DNA of 32,000 nucleotides. Origin: Nitrososphaera viennensis EN76 (lineage in GTDB: Archaea > Thermoproteota > Nitrososphaeria > Nitrososphaerales > Nitrososphaeraceae). Positions 9,482 through 30,683 of the stretch are shown here, piece after piece. Numbering within the stretch: position 1 is the first letter of the stretch; every line of letters begins with the position of its first letter. The stretch covers positions 2,130,001 to 2,162,000 of the forward strand of contig NZ_CP007536.1 of the NCBI RefSeq assembly GCF_000698785.1, read 5' to 3'. The notes under the pieces were generated by a model, which worked only from the letters and a program-made list of their open reading frames with translations, had not been told where the DNA came from and made no database searches. The position numbers were made by a program, and so were the translations under genes.

Positions 9482-10699
9482 TTATATCGGCCTTGCCAGC
9501 CTGACGTGCACCAGCTGCGGGCTCTGCTTGCTCTGCATTATCCTCGGCTCGTTGCCCGAGCGCTTGAAGTAGGATGCCAGCACCACTGCCCAGGGCAGGA
9601 CGTGCTTGCCCTCCGCCTTGGACTGGAGGCTGACTATGTTGTTGCTCTTGTCATGCTTGAGCCCGCCAAGGCAGCTTATCTTTAATGCCGAGTCGACTAG
9701 GTCGAGCATTTCCGGCGCGCTCATGGTCCCCACCCTGAGCCCGTACCTCCTCTCCATCACTTCAAGGAGCTCGCCGGCGGGGTCCTCGTTGTTCATGGCG
9801 TATTCGAGCATGTGCGCGGCAAGGCCGTTTTCCACCGCCCTTGCAAGCTCTATCGCCTTTGCGGCAAGCGCCGGCTGGGCCTCCAGCGCGTGCTTGGCCT
9901 CGCCCGCCCTTGTCCAGGCCTCTTCAAAGTTCTTGGCCTGCAGCGCGCCGTACGCGTCAAGGGACGCAAAGAGCGCTGCCTTGCCGTTGCTTGAATCGAC
10001 AGAGACCATGTGGGTCATGTCGACTATCATGAGGTTTGACGAAACGGTGGCGTCGCTTGCTGCCATGCGCAGCTCTATGCCGTCAGGCAACAAAGACAGG
10101 CTCTCGCTTCCAAGGCACTGCGCGCCGACTATAAATCGGATCCGCGCGCCGTTTGTAGCCGCCTTTATCAGCTGCCCCCTGCACTGCGCAAGCAGCCGCA
10201 GCCCCCACGGGTCCAGGGCCGCGGTTATCGACGACCTTGCGCCTGCGACCAGGCCTGATATCTTTGACAGCGCCGAGTCGGGGTCGAGGATGAAATACCT
10301 CTTTTCTTCCGAGCCCCTGGGCCTCTGGCCCTCGTCGCTCAATCTCTGCAGGCGCTCGACGATCTTGCGCATGTTTCTCACCCTGCGCTCGTGCAAATTC
10401 ACTATCTCGCCAAACGCCTCCTCCGGAGGGATCGCGCTGCAGATGAGCGGCTTTTGCCTTGACACGACTGCCAGCCTCTTTTTCTCCAGCTTTTTCACCG
10501 TCTGGTACACCTTGGTCCTAGGCAGGTTGGCATAGTACGCAAGGTCGCTTGCCGCAAGCGACCCCTTGCCTATCATCGTGAGGTAGGCGCGCGCTTCGTA
10601 TTTTGACAGCCCGAACTCTTCAAGGCTTGCCGGCAGGTCGCCCGAAGCTGGAGAAGTGCTAGAAATGATAGAAGCAGAAGAATGGCTTTTCTGGTGCAT
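9482..10699 (-). CDS. TrmB-family transcriptional regulator with long C-terminal extension
   Basis: Has an N-terminal wHTH, LSKYEARAYLTMIGKGSLAASDLAYYANLPRTKVYQTVKKLEKKRL. At 405 aa it is longer than typical TrmB. It is divergent from the cdvB genes. Confidence 0.75.
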   Translation of the reverse strand: MHQKSHSSASIISSTSPASGDLPASLEEFGLSKYEARAYLTMIGKGSLAASDLAYYANLPRTKVYQTVKKLEKKRLAVVSRQKPLICSAIPPEEAFGEIVNLHERRVRNMRKIVERLQRLSDEGQRPRGSEEKRYFILDPDSALSKISGLVAGARSSITAALDPWGLRLLAQCRGQLIKAATNGARIRFIVGAQCLGSESLSLLPDGIELRMAASDATVSSNLMIVDMTHMVSVDSSNGKAALFASLDAYGALQAKNFEEAWTRAGEAKHALEAQPALAAKAIELARAVENGLAAHMLEYAMNNEDPAGELLEVMERRYGLRVGTMSAPEMLDLVDSALKISCLGGLKHDKSNNIVSLQSKAEGKHVLPWAVVLASYFKRSGNEPRIMQSKQSPQLVHVRLARPI

Positions 10700-23786: not shown

Positions 23787-25256
23787 CTATGCTGGATTGG
23801 TACTCTTCTTGCGCATCGCCTTGGTCTTCGCCGGTCCGCTTGTCGTACGATATCTTGATGGCTCCGGCTGGATCTTTAGAGCCGAGTGCCCAGTAGGGTA
23901 TCCCTGAAAGTCGTGATCCCAGTATACAAAAACGCCTTCTTCCTGCCTGCCCTGTTCAAACGCGCAATGATACCCGGCGGGCAGCATTGACGGCTCTTTG
24001 ACAGAACCACTTTCCTGGCCTGGCATGCTGTTGTTGCAGAGCGAACCTGCCTTTGCATTTTCAAGGGTGTTTGTCTCTGACTCTGAAGAGTAGATTATCC
24101 TGCCCGTGTTGGCGCCCACAAGATAATACGCGGCATCGTCGTATCCTGCGCTTTTGTCCTTCTTTACGAGCACCTGCACGGCGTACGCCAGCCTGTCCGC
24201 GTTGTTATCTTGCAGATCCAGCTTGCTGTACTCTGGGTAGCAGGCCAGGCTTGCCGGGTCGCACCTGCCAAGGACCCTGTTTTCGCCATTGTCTATCACT
24301 ATGCGGGCCCCGCTGGGCGCAAAATAGTACAGCATGACTGGGAATTTCTTTGACAGCGGGTAGTCTGCTACCTGTGCGCCCGGGTTTCTGGCAAGGATGT
24401 CTTTTGCCACAATGCCTGCCGCGTCTTTTTCTGACAGTATGGGCTTGAGCTCGGAGACAGAGGGAGGCATGCTGGGCATGACCACGACGGTTCCTGTCAT
24501 CCACGGGCCCGGCTCGCCGTGGTATCCGAATTCTCCTGCCCTTGTGAAAGTGAATTCAAACGAGTCTCTGGGCTGCAGCAAACGCGGCCCGTCCTTGGAA
24601 TTGGTGGCTGCGTAGAAATCGGGGTCATGGTCGTTGTCTGCCGCTATGCCATGCGGCACCTCGTCTTCGTTTGTCCACCGCACCGTGTTGTTCATGCCCA
24701 GGAACACCCTGACTGTCTTGGGGTCGTACGTCTTGCCGGACGATTGCACCGACGAGTCCTTCAGAATTCTTACGTCAACGACCTGCGGGAACACCTCCAT
24801 CGTCCTGCTGGTCTTCAGGGTGTCATACTCTGCCGATATCCTGTAAAGCCCTGCCTCCCTGATTATCACGGGGCTTGGGCCGATGCTCTGGTTGTTGTTG
24901 TCGACATATTTCCCGCCCAGCGCCCAGTTGATGTCAACCGGGCGGCTTTGTTCAGGGTCAGTGACGCACAGCACTATGGCATTTCCAGAGTCCCAGATCA
25001 CCTCGGAAGTATTTGCGTTTTTTATGGCGACATGCGGATAAGCGCATGACAAAGTCGTGCCTGTGACTCTTACAGTGATGTCCAGCGCCTGATCTATCCG
25101 GGGCTTTGGCGGGACCTCTATGCTGATTTCTGTGATGTGTGTTTTTTCTGCGGACAGGGAAGGCGAAAAGAAAAGGCCAAAGAGCACGACAAGGGCTATG
25201 CCGGCGGCAAGACCTGCGATGACCGGAATAGTCGTCGCCCCTCCCTCCTCCGCCAT
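23787..25256 (-). CDS. membrane-anchored protein with cupredoxin-like domain lacking the Cys ligand
   Basis: Has an N-terminal TM helix. TVRVFLGMNNTVRWTNEDEVPHGIAAD...SFEFTFTRAGEFGYHGEPGPWMTGTVVV parallels the plastocyanin-like pattern (V.W.N.D..PH......F.F...G.Y.Y.C..H..M.G...V). Confidence 0.7.
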   Translation of the reverse strand: MAEEGGATTIPVIAGLAAGIALVVLFGLFFSPSLSAEKTHITEISIEVPPKPRIDQALDITVRVTGTTLSCAYPHVAIKNANTSEVIWDSGNAIVLCVTDPEQSRPVDINWALGGKYVDNNNQSIGPSPVIIREAGLYRISAEYDTLKTSRTMEVFPQVVDVRILKDSSVQSSGKTYDPKTVRVFLGMNNTVRWTNEDEVPHGIAADNDHDPDFYAATNSKDGPRLLQPRDSFEFTFTRAGEFGYHGEPGPWMTGTVVVMPSMPPSVSELKPILSEKDAAGIVAKDILARNPGAQVADYPLSKKFPVMLYYFAPSGARIVIDNGENRVLGRCDPASLACYPEYSKLDLQDNNADRLAYAVQVLVKKDKSAGYDDAAYYLVGANTGRIIYSSESETNTLENAKAGSLCNNSMPGQESGSVKEPSMLPAGYHCAFEQGRQEEGVFVYWDHDFQGYPTGHSALKIQPEPSRYRTTSGPAKTKAMRKKSTNPA

Positions 25257-25504
25257 GTATGTATACGCCTTTTTCCTCTAGGAAGGCTCTTTTGAAGTTT
25301 TATCCAAACGGCCAGAGTTTCTGGACTGGAGGTTCTGATCGATACGCCCGGAGATGGCGACTCAATTTGGGTCCACTGGACTCGCAAAAGGCTGACACGT
25401 TAGCTTCTCAAGTGCTGCTAATCGCGCGGAGGCCATTTCAATATATAGAAGAATTCTTCGTAAAAAGTTTATCCGTCAAATATTGACTTTAGAGGTTAGC
25501 CCAG

Positions 25505-26596
25505 TTAGGAATAGTCTCCCACAATAGAAAACCCTGTGGGTAGTGGATTTTTGGGAGTGATATTTTTGGTTACTCTTACTCTGTGTTGATAGTCCAAGAT
25601 GTTCCCTTTTCTTTCATAGTATTCTGCCGCTAGAACGGTAGCCGTAATTGATGTATTTCTCGCCAGTTCCTCTCTCAATGATTCATCGAGGTTCAATAGG
25701 TCATCAGATGACGCTCTTTTTTCCAGACCATTCATGTGCACATACAGTATTGCCGGACGTGTCCCACTGAATTGACCACGTTTTTTCTTGACGGAGTTAA
25801 CTATTTTTCCAATACGATCATTCATAGTGCCAGAATCGAATCCCAATACTCTTGGATTCTCACAGAAGTTGGCCGTAAAGATATTTTCTGAATCAAGCTT
25901 CATATTCATAACCAAGTGGTCATATTCATCGAGGACAACTTGCGGTAATCCTGAAACAGGTACTTTTTGATCCTTCCATGATACTATCTGCAGCTTGATA
26001 GTTGTACCATTATCGTAATGAAATTCTCCCTCTTTTTTGCTCTTGAGTAGTTTCTGCATTTCATTTTTTATATGTTCTACATCTTGATCGGTTGGATCGC
26101 TCCGGGTAACTATGTGTACGAAGTAATTAAGACCAACATATTCCATTAGGCTAACCGCAGCTCTCGCCACATTATTCCACTTGTCAATATTCTCTCTGTC
26201 TCTGTCAGTTTTTCTATCCTTCTTGGTACATTCGACTTCTATGTCATCAACCAGTAGATCATAGGTTCTCTTTCCTTCTTGCGGTGTAGTTTTGACAAAT
26301 TGTATATTATTCCCTCTTTCTGCATAAGCGGCCGCCACTTGAATTTCAAAATAGGTCTTCTCGAAAAGATCTTTCTTAGGAGATCTTAGTTCCAGTATCT
26401 TTTCCTTCAGTCCTTCTACTTTCTTATCTTCAAGTATTTTAATGCGTTCGCCCAAGTATGCCGTTCTTAGCGCCGCTTCATCTATGTCTAATATTCTGTT
26501 CTGCAAGCTTTTCTGAATCTGATTTTCAGTTTGATAGACTAGATAGGCCAGCGGATGCCACGTTTCCTCAACGCCTAACAATCCAAGATTACGCAA
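25505..26596 (-). CDS. orphan hypothetical protein, AT-rich; N-terminus probably extends to ATG 26705 across an A8 frameshift
   Basis: 363-aa TTG-started track ORF. FEIQVAAAYAERG...YDLLVDDIEVECTKK is loosely PD-(D/E)xK-like. See the findings for the frameshift. Confidence 0.65.
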   Translation of the reverse strand: MRNLGLLGVEETWHPLAYLVYQTENQIQKSLQNRILDIDEAALRTAYLGERIKILEDKKVEGLKEKILELRSPKKDLFEKTYFEIQVAAAYAERGNNIQFVKTTPQEGKRTYDLLVDDIEVECTKKDRKTDRDRENIDKWNNVARAAVSLMEYVGLNYFVHIVTRSDPTDQDVEHIKNEMQKLLKSKKEGEFHYDNGTTIKLQIVSWKDQKVPVSGLPQVVLDEYDHLVMNMKLDSENIFTANFCENPRVLGFDSGTMNDRIGKIVNSVKKKRGQFSGTRPAILYVHMNGLEKRASSDDLLNLDESLREELARNTSITATVLAAEYYERKGNILDYQHRVRVTKNITPKNPLPTGFSIVGDYS

Positions 26597-26873
26597 GTTT
26601 GTTGGCTTGTATGATCGTATTTTTCCTATTTCTTCAGATAGCCAATCCTCTCCAACTGACTCCCGAACTTTTTTTTACGCTCTCAATGAACACATCGAGA
26701 TTCATATGACGCATAGTCTATTCTGATGAGATACATACAATCTAGTTATGTTTTGCCAACTTATGCCCAATGTAAATCCATCCAAAGCTTACAATCTTGG
26801 CTCGCTACCAATGGGGATATTCGTGGGTATTCATGCAACATTTCATATACAAGGTCAAGCGTGGAATTGGCTA

Positions 26874-26966
26874 GGGCCCGTCGCCTAGTCAGGACAGGGT
26901 GCTGATCTGAAAAAGAGCGCATGCCTCCGGAGCTAGTTGTCGTGGGATCGAAGCCCACCGGGCCCG
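26874..26966 (+). tRNA. tRNA-Arg (anticodon CCG) with an 18-nt non-canonical intron between positions 29/30
   Basis: 7-bp acceptor stem GGGCCCG/CGGGCCC. D arm GCCT-AGTCAGGACA-GGGT. T arm GTGGG-ATCGAAG-CCCAC. Discriminator G. Removing 26905-26922 yields the anticodon arm CTGGC-CTCCGGA-GCTAG and a 75-nt mature tRNA. Confidence 0.78.
26905..26922 (+). other. tRNA intron bounded by a bulge-helix-bulge motif
   Basis: Outer helix 26896-98/26924-26. Bulge 26903-05. Central 4-bp helix 26899-902/26917-20 (G-C, U-G, G-C, C-G). Bulge 26921-23. Inner helix 26906-08/26914-16 with loop GAAAA. Confidence 0.7.
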
Positions 26967-27069
26967 CTTACTCCACTTATCGAGTCCACACCTTAAAAGC
27001 GCAGAAAATACGAAATTAGCGGAGGGAAAACAGGGAAACAAGAGCTGCAAGAAAAGAAGCAAGGATCTT

Positions 27070-28395: not shown

Positions 28396-28404
28396 GCAGC
28401 GTCT

Positions 28405-28712
28405 CTACAGCCCCTTCTTCTTTTTGTATGCATCTTCAGATATTGCTGATAAAAGTGTGTTGACCAGTTTCAGATAAGGTTCGATGGCGCTGCTTACAAT
28501 GACATCGACAAATTCATGCCGCAGGGTCTGTAGCGCCCCATCGACATCCAATGAATAGACGAATATGGTATCACCGAGAACTTCACCTTCCTTCTTTGAA
28601 TCTGCTTTGGGAGACCAGACAACCTTAAACTCGGTCTTTATTCCTGCCCTAGCCTTTAGCCTTTTCAGCTCTCGAGGATGAAGGAACCGTTCTGTTCAAG
28701 TCTTGGATTCAT
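28405..28712 (-). pseudogene. frameshifted small ORF
   Basis: ATG 28712 sits about 25 nt downstream of a TTTTATACA box and reads MNPRLEQNGSFILES then stop. Another frame is open from 28695 to the TAG at 28407-28405 (96 codons) with no start near its 5' end: TERFLHPRELKRLKARAGIKTEFKVVWSPKADSKKEGEVLGDTIFVYSLDVDGALQTLRHEFVDVIVSSAIEPYLKLVNTLLSAISEDAYKKKKGL. Confidence 0.3.
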
Positions 28713-28794
28713 TGCCAAGTGATAAGTCAAATGTATAAAAGCCGTGAAACCGCGAGAAAACTACTGAAATTTAGTGCAAAATGAAAGATGGTTT

Positions 28795-29223
28795 TTCGTC
28801 TTAAATATCTTGGATGCATAAAATAGCACAGAGTAGAGTAAATCAAAGCCAAACTACAGTCTGTCCGGCAGGATCAAAAGCTCACCTGTACCTGGACACG
28901 GGGAGACTGCTGTAGCATTTGCCTTTTTTTGAATTATGCTTTGGAAAATGCAGTTTTGATGCGTGACGCATCAAAGAACTTAAGTACAAGGTATGCAAGT
29001 AGCACAAGACAATTGCCGATTGTTCCGCCACAGCAAAAAGAAATTTCGGGGTCAATTTCCGCCTTAAATATTTACGACGTGTATTATGGTGTAGCATAAA
29101 CTAAGAACCGAACGACCGTTGTCCGTCAGGACAAAACCCGTCGGTACCAGTGGTACCAAAAGAACGCGGTGCCGTAGCACCAACCTATTTTGAATTATGA
29201 TTTATCCAGCAGACTGCAGTTTT
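28795..29223. repeat. degenerate tandem units of about 260 bp (second unit interrupted by the IS)
   Basis: Shared landmarks occur at offsets of about 258-266 bp: CTTAAATAT (28799/29063), TGTCCG.CAGGA (28862/29120), GAATTATG (28931/29191) and TGCAGTTTT (28949/29215). AAAGAACTTAA.TACA is at 28973 and after the IS at 29951. Confidence 0.6.
29143..29181. repeat. dyad sites left of the IS: GGTACCAGTGGTACC (29143-29157) and GGTGCCGTAGCACC (29168-29181)
   Basis: Read directly from the sequence. Same motif family as the 29995-30209 array. Confidence 0.85.
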
Positions 29224-29950
29224 GGTGCCCCGGGGGCTCCGTTAACTTAGCCACCATCCTTGGCCAGGAATGTCATAAACCGTATCATGTCTGCGCCCAT
29301 ATGCAGGTACAGTAAAAATAATTTGAACCAGTTCCAGACATGCTGTCTGTCACAATTCTCCTTCCTGCATGGAAAGTGGTCGTCAAAACACTCCGTCCTG
29401 TCCTTGATATGCTGTATAAACCGCTCCATCAAATTCTTCAATTCTGTACCGTACACATAATGGCGTAATCTGAGCCACCTGCAAGCATCATTGTACCACT
29501 GAGCACCGTCTGTGAATATCGGCCTCCTTCCATACCTCCTTTGCAACTGCTTGAAGAACTGGTAACATACGAAAATGGTCCTCTCACGAGACAGATGCAT
29601 CATCAAGCATGTGCCAATAGTTGGTTCGTACGCTATCCATAGCCAATAGTCATGCCCATCTATCTGCAATAGTGTTTCGTCAACAAATATTGCCCTGACA
29701 AGGCGTCTGTCTGTCCGGAACCTGTCTGCAAGGCTGGAATATTTCTGTACCCATTTCCATACAGCAACGTGGCTCCTTCTCTTTATTGGTGATAGCGATC
29801 TGGCTGCCAGCCGAAAGCTCCTAGAATTAAAATACAGGTACAGTGCATATCTGATTATAGCTGGGTCTGTCCTCTTTCTCATGCCAATGAAAAGCTAGGA
29901 CAGTCCTAGCTATACAGATTACCCTAAGTTAACAGAGCCCCCCGGGCATC
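29224..29950 (-). mobile_element. IS6-family insertion sequence (about 727 bp)
   Basis: Terminal inverted repeats GGTGCCCCGGGGGCTCCGTTAACTTAG (29224-29250) and, as reverse complement of 29924-29950, GATGCCCGGGGGGCTCTGTTAACTTAG match at 24/27 positions. It has a single DDE transposase ORF. Confidence 0.8.
29247..29882 (-). CDS. IS6-family DDE transposase
   Basis: 211 aa with FVDETLLQIDGHDYWLWIAYEP (first D), PIFTDGAQWY (second D) and LMERFIQHIKDR (E). The size and the ORF ending inside the IR are typical of IS6. Confidence 0.85.
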   Translation of the reverse strand: MRKRTDPAIIRYALYLYFNSRSFRLAARSLSPIKRRSHVAVWKWVQKYSSLADRFRTDRRLVRAIFVDETLLQIDGHDYWLWIAYEPTIGTCLMMHLSRERTIFVCYQFFKQLQRRYGRRPIFTDGAQWYNDACRWLRLRHYVYGTELKNLMERFIQHIKDRTECFDDHFPCRKENCDRQHVWNWFKLFLLYLHMGADMIRFMTFLAKDGG

Positions 29951-29994
29951 AAAGAACTTAAATACATGATATATAAAGAACGGCTAAACCAACT

Positions 29995-30209
29995 GGCACC
30001 AGTGGTGCCATTCCTGCAGGCTGGTGCCAAATTTTGATACCAGTGGTACCAGTTTTGGCACCAGGGCACGGATATGTGGTACCAGTGGTACCAAAATGAC
30101 TGGTACCAGCATCAAAAAATGGCACCAGTGGTGCCAAACATGTGCAGTGGTACCACTGGTACCAACTTTCAGCAGGATGGACACTCAACCTGGTACCAGC
30201 GATGGCGCC
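29995..30209. repeat. phased array of 15-bp dyad GGYACC-AGT-GGTRCC plus half-sites
   Basis: Full sites at 29995-30009, 30036-30050 (GATACC first half), 30078-30092, 30121-30135 and 30149-30163 (ACT spacer). Partial sites at 30023-28, 30057-69, 30102-09, 30192-99 and 30204-09. Confidence 0.9.
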
Positions 30210-30516
30210 AGACAGGATCAAGTGATACGCCGATGCATAGCCTGCCAACGGTGGGAAATAACATGAAGAACCACAGTCGTGGTCATGACTTGATACGCCT
30301 GACAAAGCGACACATAAGGTGTTATCAAACCCGGTTAACCCTAGCTCACCAAAATGATTGTAAAGATATTTGCCGTCGCAGAGCATTGTTCTTGCGCTTT
30401 CGGACACTGCTCTAGTTCTGCCGCAGAATGGCAATAAAGCTGTGTGTACCTACAATGCAAAAAGATAGTTGCTGCTGGTGCCAGCAATTCCCCCGCATTA
30501 TCCATTTTCATGTCCA

Positions 30517-30683
30517 ATTTTCTTTAACCTTATCATACATTTTCTATCTGTCCAACTACGTTGTATGCTAAGATCCTGTCGTTTGTTTACGATTGATATT
30601 TACCCTAACTCTGTGCCGTTGCTTCCCTATTTTCTATCTGCAATCCGTCTTTAAATTGTGCATTACATCCAATTTTCTATTCG
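30517..30683. repeat. ATTTTCTAT repeats in AT-rich non-coding gap
   Basis: Exact ATTTTCTAT at 30539, 30629 and 30672. The 12-mer ATTTTCTATCTG occurs exactly at 30539-50 and 30629-40. A variant AATTTTCTTTA is at 30516-26. Confidence 0.75.

Follow-up and report, generated by a model that had tools for sequence, protein, structure and literature searches.

A phased array of TGGYRCCA dyads shared by Nitrososphaera species and interrupted by an insertion sequence in Nitrososphaera viennensis EN76

Clusters of short sites bound by ribbon-helix-helix (RHH) proteins are known as operators or centromeres, including the met-boxes of MetJ, the omega heptads of pSM19035, the parC sites of ParG and ParR, and the sites of CopG and of Sulfolobus SegB. 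A repeat array next to a small RHH gene is the layout of type Ib and type II par loci, as in the omega, ParG, ParR and SegB systems. In the field of replication, both the iteron Rep proteins and Sulfolobus WhiP/Cdt1 are winged-helix (WH) proteins. For ammonia-oxidising archaea we know of very few cis-regulatory or architectural DNA elements, and of no genetic system. An array of phased dyads is described here from Nitrososphaera viennensis EN76, where it lies within the integrated element NitVie-E4 in a 32,000-nucleotide stretch of the chromosome (CP007536 2,130,001-2,162,000; this whole stretch is referred to as the window, and positions without a locus name are positions in it). In a preliminary description of this DNA the array was regarded as a candidate iteron, origin or centromere-like site of the integrated element, an interpretation that is, as a whole, partly supported: the array is a real, non-coding, phased dyad cluster of the kind used by DNA-binding proteins, and its relatives in other Nitrososphaera genomes are associated with a pair of genes. 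Iteron-type origins of plasmids and integrated elements are treated by Konieczny et al. (2014), as cited in PMC6563490.

Structure and conservation of the array

The repeat unit is the 8-bp half-site TGGYRCCA, two of which, paired at 9 bp, form the 17-bp dyad TGGYACCA-N-TGGTRCCA; the preliminary description had correctly recognised a dyad and had drawn its unit too narrowly, at 15 bp. Six 17-bp dyads and six lone 8-bp half-sites make up the N. viennensis array. A dyad scan gave 12 strand-matches vs 0.00 expected from 100 dinucleotide shuffles, and the full sites counted earlier by the narrower unit, at 29143, 29995, 30036 (with one mismatch), 30078, 30121 and 30149, are all present. Exact half-sites number 17 in the 32 kb, 16 of them within 29151-30483 and 14 within 29994-30210. 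Base composition predicts ~2.7 half-sites per 41.6 kb, and outside the array N. viennensis DNA has two in 41.6 kb and one in 18 kb more; in this sample of ~60 kb, from which the host-wide density is estimated, the motif is at chance level away from the array, in line with the earlier expectation that it is not evenly spread.

A motif scan for TGGYACCAGTGGTRCCA over 185,579 species genomes matched at least 120 stretches. Among the matches listed, 5 of 120 were in metagenome-assembled genomes (MAGs) of ammonia-oxidising archaea, four of the five with 10-11 half-sites within 400 bp, and the bacterial stretches among them held at most six half-sites each. The loci carrying arrays are those of N. 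gargensis (L227) and N. evergladensis (L230), reached by protein-guided look-up, the MAG loci L110, L159, L167 and L169, and the metagenome contigs L240 and L257, obtained by a two-dyad metagenome scan; homologous arrays occur in at least seven other Nitrososphaera genomes. Each locus fetched contains one array, with 10-16 half-sites over ~250-350 bp, about half of them paired into perfect 17-bp dyads, the site counts across loci not being independent events. The N. gargensis (CP002408) array (L227 8140-8461) has 12 exact half-sites and the N. evergladensis (CP007174) array is found at L230 ~9527-9760. By blastn, 29138-29205 and 29998-30574 of the window are colinear with L227 8137-8755 and L230 9762-9168 (62-63% identity over 516-573 bp, in a span of ~600 bp), with blocks outside the motif included, and this colinearity delimits the whole conserved non-coding block at 29138-30574, minus the insertion sequence (IS) described below. 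Common to the three species are an outlying dyad, a GGTGC-NGTA-GCACC variant, a distal half-site at 30476 and a block of ~55 bp.

In N. gargensis the array is neighboured by the SOD and PEPCK genes and in N. evergladensis by the nuo operon and the AdoHcyase gene; both arrays belong to the core chromosome and lie outside every catalogued integrated mobile genetic element. To the question raised in the preliminary description, whether such sites cluster only in integrase-linked islands, these two genomes give a negative answer. Its central proposal, that of an iteron, origin or centromere belonging to the integrated element, is not supported, as the homologous arrays are chromosomal and tied to a gene pair, not to an integrase, and among the NitVie-E4 genes there is no recognised replication initiator (Rep, Orc1/Cdc6, primase-helicase) and no recognised ParA/ParM-type partition ATPase. 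Based on the sister-genome comparison, the array is a chromosomal element that now lies inside the boundaries of an integrated element.

A scan of viral contigs gave single chance sites and a family of contigs (L018, L033, L063, L072) in which the matches recur at multiples of 81, 90 or 162 bp. In the metagenome contigs L248 and L251-L253 the 17-mer recurs at spacings in multiples of 9, as coding repeats would; the 17-mer repeats of viral and metagenome contigs are most likely Gly/Thr/Ser-rich coding repeats unrelated to the archaeal array.

No conserved reading frame runs through the array across the aligned species, in which the frames diverge, and the indel runs divisible by three amount to 15% and 23% in two alignment groups, in agreement with the earlier statement that no credible protein is encoded here. 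In the same two groups the identity of motif vs spacer columns is 0.63 vs 0.38 and 0.91 vs 0.80; since motif columns are conserved above spacers and positions are kept across species, the array is under selection. Over eight loci, 31 of the 32 full sites have their half-sites 9 bp apart and one has them 8 bp apart, and the inner pairs of the dyads (n=31) are TA/TA in 17 cases, CA/TG in 13 and mixed in one, with no other combination. Pooled over the same loci, the distances between dyad centres fall at 21-23, 41-43 and 62-63 bp, the second of these being the spacing reported before, and the phasing is strongest at a period of 10.5 bp (Rayleigh R = 0.71), in two subgroups with different layouts. 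The full dyads therefore lie on the same side of the helix, with their centres 2, 4 or 6 turns apart; the earlier claim of same-face phasing stands for them and fails for the lone half-sites, which have no helical phase (R = 0.27). The lone half-sites are placed symmetrically around dyads, with intervening spacers that are not complementary, and the central base of the dyad is G or C without strand preference, and for these two reasons recognition of duplex DNA is favoured over an RNA or cruciform stem. A search of Rfam 15 gave no match at the gathering threshold and two chance-level matches at E up to 1. An array of the type of clustered regularly interspaced short palindromic repeats (CRISPR) was rejected on spacing (21-43 bp between 17-bp sites).

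Read from left to right, the N. viennensis array opens on the left of the IS with the outlying dyad 1, CGGTACCA-G-TGGTACCA (29142-29158), which is also present in N. gargensis and N. evergladensis, followed by the variant palindrome GGTGC-CGTA-GCACC (29168-29181), the ‘swapped-half’ site, kept as GGTGCAGTAGCACC in the same two species. To the right of the IS, dyad 2, TGGCACCA-G-TGGTGCCA (29994-30010), and the lone half-site TGGTGCCA (30022-30029) precede dyad 3, TGATACCA-G-TGGTACCA (30035-30051), whose single mismatch (GATACC) is a variant kept in other genomes. Then come the lone half-site TGGCACCA (30056-30063), dyad 4, TGGTACCA-G-TGGTACCA (30077-30093), the lone half-site TGGTACCA (30101-30108), dyad 5, TGGCACCA-G-TGGTGCCA (30120-30136), and dyad 6, TGGTACCA-C-TGGTACCA (30148-30164, central ACT); N. 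gargensis and N. evergladensis have TGGCACCA-C-TGGTGCCA at the position aligned with dyad 6, a difference of two symmetric changes. A lone half-site TGGTACCA starting at 30191 and another, TGGCGCCA, starting at 30203 come next (30191-30210), and the distal half-site TGGTGCCA (30476-30483) keeps its position in N. gargensis and N. evergladensis. It is followed by the ~55-bp block CCCCGCATTATCCATTTTCATGTCCAATTTTCTTTAACCTTATCATACATTT (30484-30540), nearly identical in the three species, which opens a stretch of 63% AT reaching ~30740 and through which no conserved open reading frame (ORF) runs, an indel shifting the frame after ‘MKMDNAG’. The block is on the side of the array that faces away from the small gene described in the next section, and could be a promoter or another binding site.

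The adjacent gene pair and the possible role of the array

At every array locus except that of N. viennensis, the array is found on the 5' side of a gene encoding a protein of ~78 aa (Ngar_c24180 in N. gargensis, NTE_02456 in N. evergladensis), whose start codon has a TATA box ~25 bp upstream. In the L169 group 60-80 bp separate the array from this small gene; in N. gargensis and N. evergladensis the distance is ~250 bp, made up of AT-rich DNA, and in L110/L234 it is 3.5 kb. The small protein is nearly invariant within Nitrososphaera, evidencing strong purifying selection, and a profile search with it retrieved 124 distant relatives, one of them a tandem double domain. In its AlphaFold2 monomer model, with a predicted local distance difference test (pLDDT) of 67, an extended segment is followed by a helix and then by a long one, in a strand-helix-helix pattern. 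The best thematic PDB matches are ParD antitoxins, non-significant with E = 2.1 in Foldseek and 0.15 in a PDB profile search; a Pfam RHH_1 match was obtained for 1 of 80 relatives, and two relatives carry the Joint Genome Institute (JGI) name ‘Arc/MetJ-type RHH regulator’. The PHROGs and PADLOC searches for the fold returned nothing significant. Judged from the model and these matches, the small gene may encode an RHH protein.

The second gene (Ngar_c24170 in N. gargensis), convergent with the first, encodes ~585 aa and belongs to a family in which ~50% identity is kept in Bathyarchaeota and Asgard MAGs. Besides three WH domains, the model of the large protein (pLDDT 80) has an alpha/beta domain, in which an ECK motif is invariant, and a helical tail; its only significant structural matches are the multi-WH proteins TFIIIC tauB, Rpc34 and Rpc82, and no Walker motif is present in its consensus. 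The two genes adjoin in distant archaea too, and the two-gene module was located at L227 6001-7888, L230 10001-11957 and L169 4197-6168, as well as in L231 and L233. It is kept across Thaumarchaeota, Bathyarchaeota and Asgard MAGs, with several copies in the MAGs HRF40, ABI347 and mag.109f; in the module the large protein is 520-590 aa long with an invariant ...RIGHNWEA... / YVLECKWG core. In one MAG, an insertion of 3.5 kb (L110 1070-4578 = L234 59-3566) separates the array from the small-gene promoter and codes for an unknown protein of 289 aa and a PD40 beta-propeller protein of 499 aa. Taken with the IS of N. viennensis and with the AT-rich DNA that separates array and gene in N. gargensis and N. 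evergladensis, this insert suggests that the junction between array and small gene tolerates or attracts insertions.

As a leading explanation that falls a little short of an even chance, it can be proposed that the array is a genus-wide non-coding cis-element that docks a dimeric DNA-binding protein and is orphaned in N. viennensis. It would serve as a multi-site docking array on double-stranded DNA, a dimeric sequence-specific protein binding each dyad and assembling cooperatively into a higher-order nucleoprotein complex. The small ~78-aa protein is predicted to be the most likely binder, and the complex would probably control the promoter of the two-gene module and/or mark the locus.

Several observations weigh against this proposal. 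The triple-WH protein could equally be the binder. The small Nitrososphaera protein has no Pfam or NCBIfam match, its Foldseek matches in PDB and BFVD are non-significant, and a panel of RHH and control proteins was non-discriminating. No half-site overlaps the TATA box of the small gene: the nearest one is 47 bp upstream of it in L169, and the distance rises to ~250 bp in N. gargensis and N. evergladensis and to 3.5 kb in L110/L234; because the promoter is not overlapped and the array is intact at 3.5 kb, it is not a simple operator. Near the distant small-gene homologues of L231 and L233 there is no detectable array and no significant k-mer enrichment, and no co-variation between protein and motif was found. 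Moreover, the main array of N. viennensis keeps 14 exact half-sites though neither partner gene was found, a state that is unusual in a relic and points to a different binder or a different function.

These last observations lend some weight to a different, unlikely explanation, namely that the array docks a host-encoded factor of all Nitrososphaera, such as a chromatin protein or a global regulator, and that it stands next to the small gene solely through inherited synteny. A factor of this kind would be compatible with an N. viennensis array as intact as those of its relatives in the absence of both genes, with the intact array 3.5 kb from the small gene in L110/L234 and with distant small-gene homologues devoid of arrays. 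However, the array keeps its side relative to this one gene pair over eight independent loci whose flanks are otherwise unrelated, and a single array per fetched locus with chance-level half-sites elsewhere in ~60 kb would be unusual for a global factor.

Less probable is a replication origin, be it an iteron origin of NitVie-E4 or a chromosomal or captured secondary origin with the adjacent multi-WH protein as initiator and the small protein as copy or expression regulator. The 17-bp sites are phased at ~21 and 42 bp in an iteron-like manner, the neighbouring protein has three WH domains, and the array is abutted by the most AT-rich 200-bp interval of its locus in N. evergladensis, N. gargensis and L169 and by the second most AT-rich one in N. 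viennensis; the array-abutting AT-rich intervals in the other three loci are ordinary intergenic or promoter DNA. Nevertheless, no Rep, Orc1/Cdc6 or helicase gene is found in NitVie-E4 near the array or within 6-10 kb at any locus, the sites are dyads and not direct repeats, and the array is not element-specific. In addition, the WH protein family is widespread without the array, and N. viennensis lacks the putative initiator. The genes around the array are convergent in every genome, contrary to the arrangement at a usual origin, and the skew maxima at the arrays were discarded as an origin signal, being explained by this convergent orientation alone.

With still lower probability, the array could form part, with the small RHH-like and the triple-WH protein, of a previously unrecognised archaeal chromosome-maintenance locus, centromere- or origin-like. 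The phased dyads would then nucleate a nucleoprotein complex and NitVie-E4 would have captured such a site or landed beside it, while the large protein would contribute a WH architecture similar to that of Rpc34, Rpc82 and TFIIIC, in a family that Thaumarchaeota share with Bathyarchaeota and Asgard MAGs.

Improbable, too, is a partition centromere comparable to parC/parS or the SegB sites of Sulfolobus, which would be bound by the small RHH-like protein and would segregate the chromosome or an element. It would fit a short-repeat array upstream of a small putative RHH gene with sites on one helix face, but a ParA, ParM or SegA-type nucleoside triphosphatase is adjacent in no examined locus, the large partner lacks a Walker motif, the RHH fold is unproven and the small gene is absent from N. 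viennensis.

Marginally more doubtful is that the array is transcribed as a structured non-coding RNA in which each GGYACC-NNN-GGTRCC unit would fold into one of a series of short hairpins. Covariation between the inner Y and R of the dyads is perfect, non-motif blocks are conserved in three species and TATA-like boxes are nearby; against this, Rfam gave no match even at a permissive threshold, the central G/C is strand-neutral and mismatch variants lie on either strand depending on the lineage, a lone half-site of 8 bp is unable to fold by itself, there is no complementarity in the spacers that separate symmetric half-sites, and helical phasing of the dyad centres is a property of duplex DNA.

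Finally, it is very improbable that the array is a by-product of restriction-type palindromes, of a slippage- or cruciform-prone repeat or of translated repeat peptides: the core GGYRCC, the BanI-type site, is a classical type II recognition sequence and gene callers predict ORFs across the array, but the flanking T and A are also conserved, giving an 8-bp unit, positions are conserved across species and motifs above spacers, an indication of selection, indels do not come in threes and frames differ between species, and the unrelated coding repeats with the same 17-mer are spaced by multiples of 9, unlike the array.

The orphan copy in NitVie-E4 and the insertion sequence

Returning to the proposal of a docking array for a dimeric protein, the N. 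viennensis copy requires separate consideration. Neither the small nor the large gene was detected in this species by tblastn over window positions 1-41587, nor among the protein-search matches or within 90%-identity clusters, their absence resting on protein collections and 60 kb of DNA. A search for remnants of lost genes in 28396-29137 returned only two 14-bp promoter-like fragments (E ~3), out of order. Since the partner genes were not found, the array is inside NitVie-E4 and the IS has cut it, the N. viennensis array is most likely an orphan copy, either a relic or bound in trans by some other, putative factor. Because its relatives are chromosomal, the array in NitVie-E4 is probably cargo or captured flank and not a maintenance site of the element itself; it may have come to lie there by capture, by landing of the element beside the array or by deletion of the module.

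The tRNA-integrase junction inferred in the preliminary description is real. It consists of a tRNA-Phe(GAA) gene with an intron at 26877-26968, recognised by eye and from the literature (the call is absent from ARAGORN and from Rfam at the gathering threshold), which ends at the att site, and of the NitVie-E4 tyrosine integrase NVIE_RS12275 (27070-28395, 2157070..2158395, + strand), identified by a PHROG integrase match and in the supplements of PMC6563490. The attL site, CCACCGGGCCCGCT, at 26955-26968, was taken from the same published supplements and from direct reading of the sequence. NitVie-E4 has been described as a cryptic element of 20.3 kb in tRNA-Phe, covering window positions 26955-47247 (CP007536 2156955-2177247), with an integrase, the transposase that interrupts the array, a membrane protein, a VirB6-like protein, an AAA+ ATPase and a type I-B CRISPR-Cas system (Krupovic et al., 2019, PMC6563490). 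The extended loci match the published gene order; the gene list also has one hypothetical protein, and the ATPase is of family PF01637 with a domain of winged helix-turn-helix type (wHTH). The array is placed between the integrase and the membrane and VirB6-like genes, within the published coordinates, confirming its earlier assignment to an integrated element. No origin or repeat array of NitVie-E4 is described in the main text and supplements of PMC6563490, as searched.

Further observations concern the surroundings of the array. The PF01637 AAA+ ATPase with its C-terminal wHTH sits between the array and the cas genes, and the latter (type I-B: cas8-like, cas7/DevR, cas5, cas3, cas6) start ~5.5 kb downstream of the array (L001 1-5822 = window ~35766-41587). 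To the left of tRNA-Phe and attL the GC content is already 0.42-0.45 (25000-27000), over an ORF of 363 aa without family match (25505-26596), and this low-GC segment may be the remnant of another acquired segment.

The IS that interrupts the array is 705 bp long (29235-29939, - strand) and has six genomic copies with identical ends at unrelated loci. It encodes a transposase (29247-29882, - strand) of Pfam DDE_Tnp_IS240 (PF13610), is bounded by 16-bp inverted repeats, GGCTCCGTTAACTTAG / CTAAGTTAACAGAGCC, and is flanked by the target duplication CCCCGGG (29228-29234 and 29940-29946), target duplications over the six copies measuring 7-8 bp. An IS240/IS6-type DDE transposase, terminal inverted repeats, a target duplication and multiple copies all characterise it as a member of the IS6 family. 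The IS copies are identical at at least six N. viennensis loci (L098-L103), and the left flank of L098 and L100 holds a partial second IS end (agggtaatctgtatagctaggactgtcc).

As anticipated in the preliminary description, the IS cut one formerly continuous array in two: the IS-free loci of N. gargensis and N. evergladensis have the same layout uninterrupted, with the outlying dyad and the GGTGC-NGTA-GCACC variant at corresponding positions and continuous with the main array. As IS-free alleles, two further complete assemblies were discarded, being identical to the window over the region, and so were the short metagenome contigs L002-L004, which are identical to the window and end at the IS.

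The target of the insertion was the second copy of a duplicated module of ~68 bp. Its intact copy (28927-28994) comprises a T-run, then the hairpin TTTGATGC-GTGAC-GCATCAAA and then the TATA-like AAAGAACTTAARTACA; the second copy (29188-29234 and 29947-29972) received the IS in its hairpin loop. The copies are 261 bp apart, with a hairpin stem of 8 bp, TTTGRTGC-N5-GCATCAAA, and differ by one stem change that is G:U-compatible on the + strand. The hairpin-bearing ~55 bp of the module is absent from the homologous sequence of N. gargensis and N. evergladensis. The duplicated sequence flanking the IS was rejected as IS ends or as a miniature inverted-repeat transposable element, the other IS copies ending at GGCTC...GGAGCC; because the six copies define the ends of the IS, the direct repeats at its sides are target DNA.

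Comparison with known systems

The array provides a sharply defined, conserved 17-bp dyad in ammonia-oxidising archaea together with two candidate binding proteins, and it draws attention to a module of two uncharacterised genes whose conservation spans several archaeal phyla. In the literature searched there was no mention of the motif TGGYRCCA, in keeping with the preliminary description, which knew of no archaeal site with this sequence. For the annotation of mobile elements, the locus advises caution, as phased repeats beside an integrase are not necessarily the origin of the element.

Compared by layout and gene content, the array resembles archaeal oriC regions with origin recognition box (ORB) elements and an orc1/cdc6 or whiP gene in having repeated dyad-like elements near AT-rich DNA, but differs from them in that no AAA+ Orc/Cdc6 gene is located within 6-10 kb in L227, L230 or the window. 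It is in part reminiscent of iteron origins, by its 17-bp sites, which look like protein-binding sites and are set two or four helical turns apart next to AT-rich DNA, and by the WH gene that adjoins it in the sister genomes. Unlike iterons, the sites are dyads and not direct repeats, neither an initiator nor a helicase is recognisable and the genes converge on the array; besides, its relatives are in the core chromosome among housekeeping genes, outside mobile elements.

With respect to the RHH centromeres of par and SegAB loci, the array accompanies the small gene in seven other Nitrososphaera loci, but not in the window, where the gene is absent. Among RHH arrays in general, it departs from the described cases in that the fold of its neighbour is unproven, it is located upstream of the promoter and not over it, up to 0.25-3.5 kb away, it has no partner ATPase, and the N. 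viennensis copy is without the partner gene. It agrees with them in its 7-9 bp sub-sites, palindromic as is the 8-bp met-box, in their clustering by the gene of a small, candidate dimeric DNA-binding protein, and in the repetition of sub-sites at ~7-11 bp from centre to centre, the half-sites here being set at 9 bp; by analogy with those systems, cooperative binding on one face of the helix would be expected.

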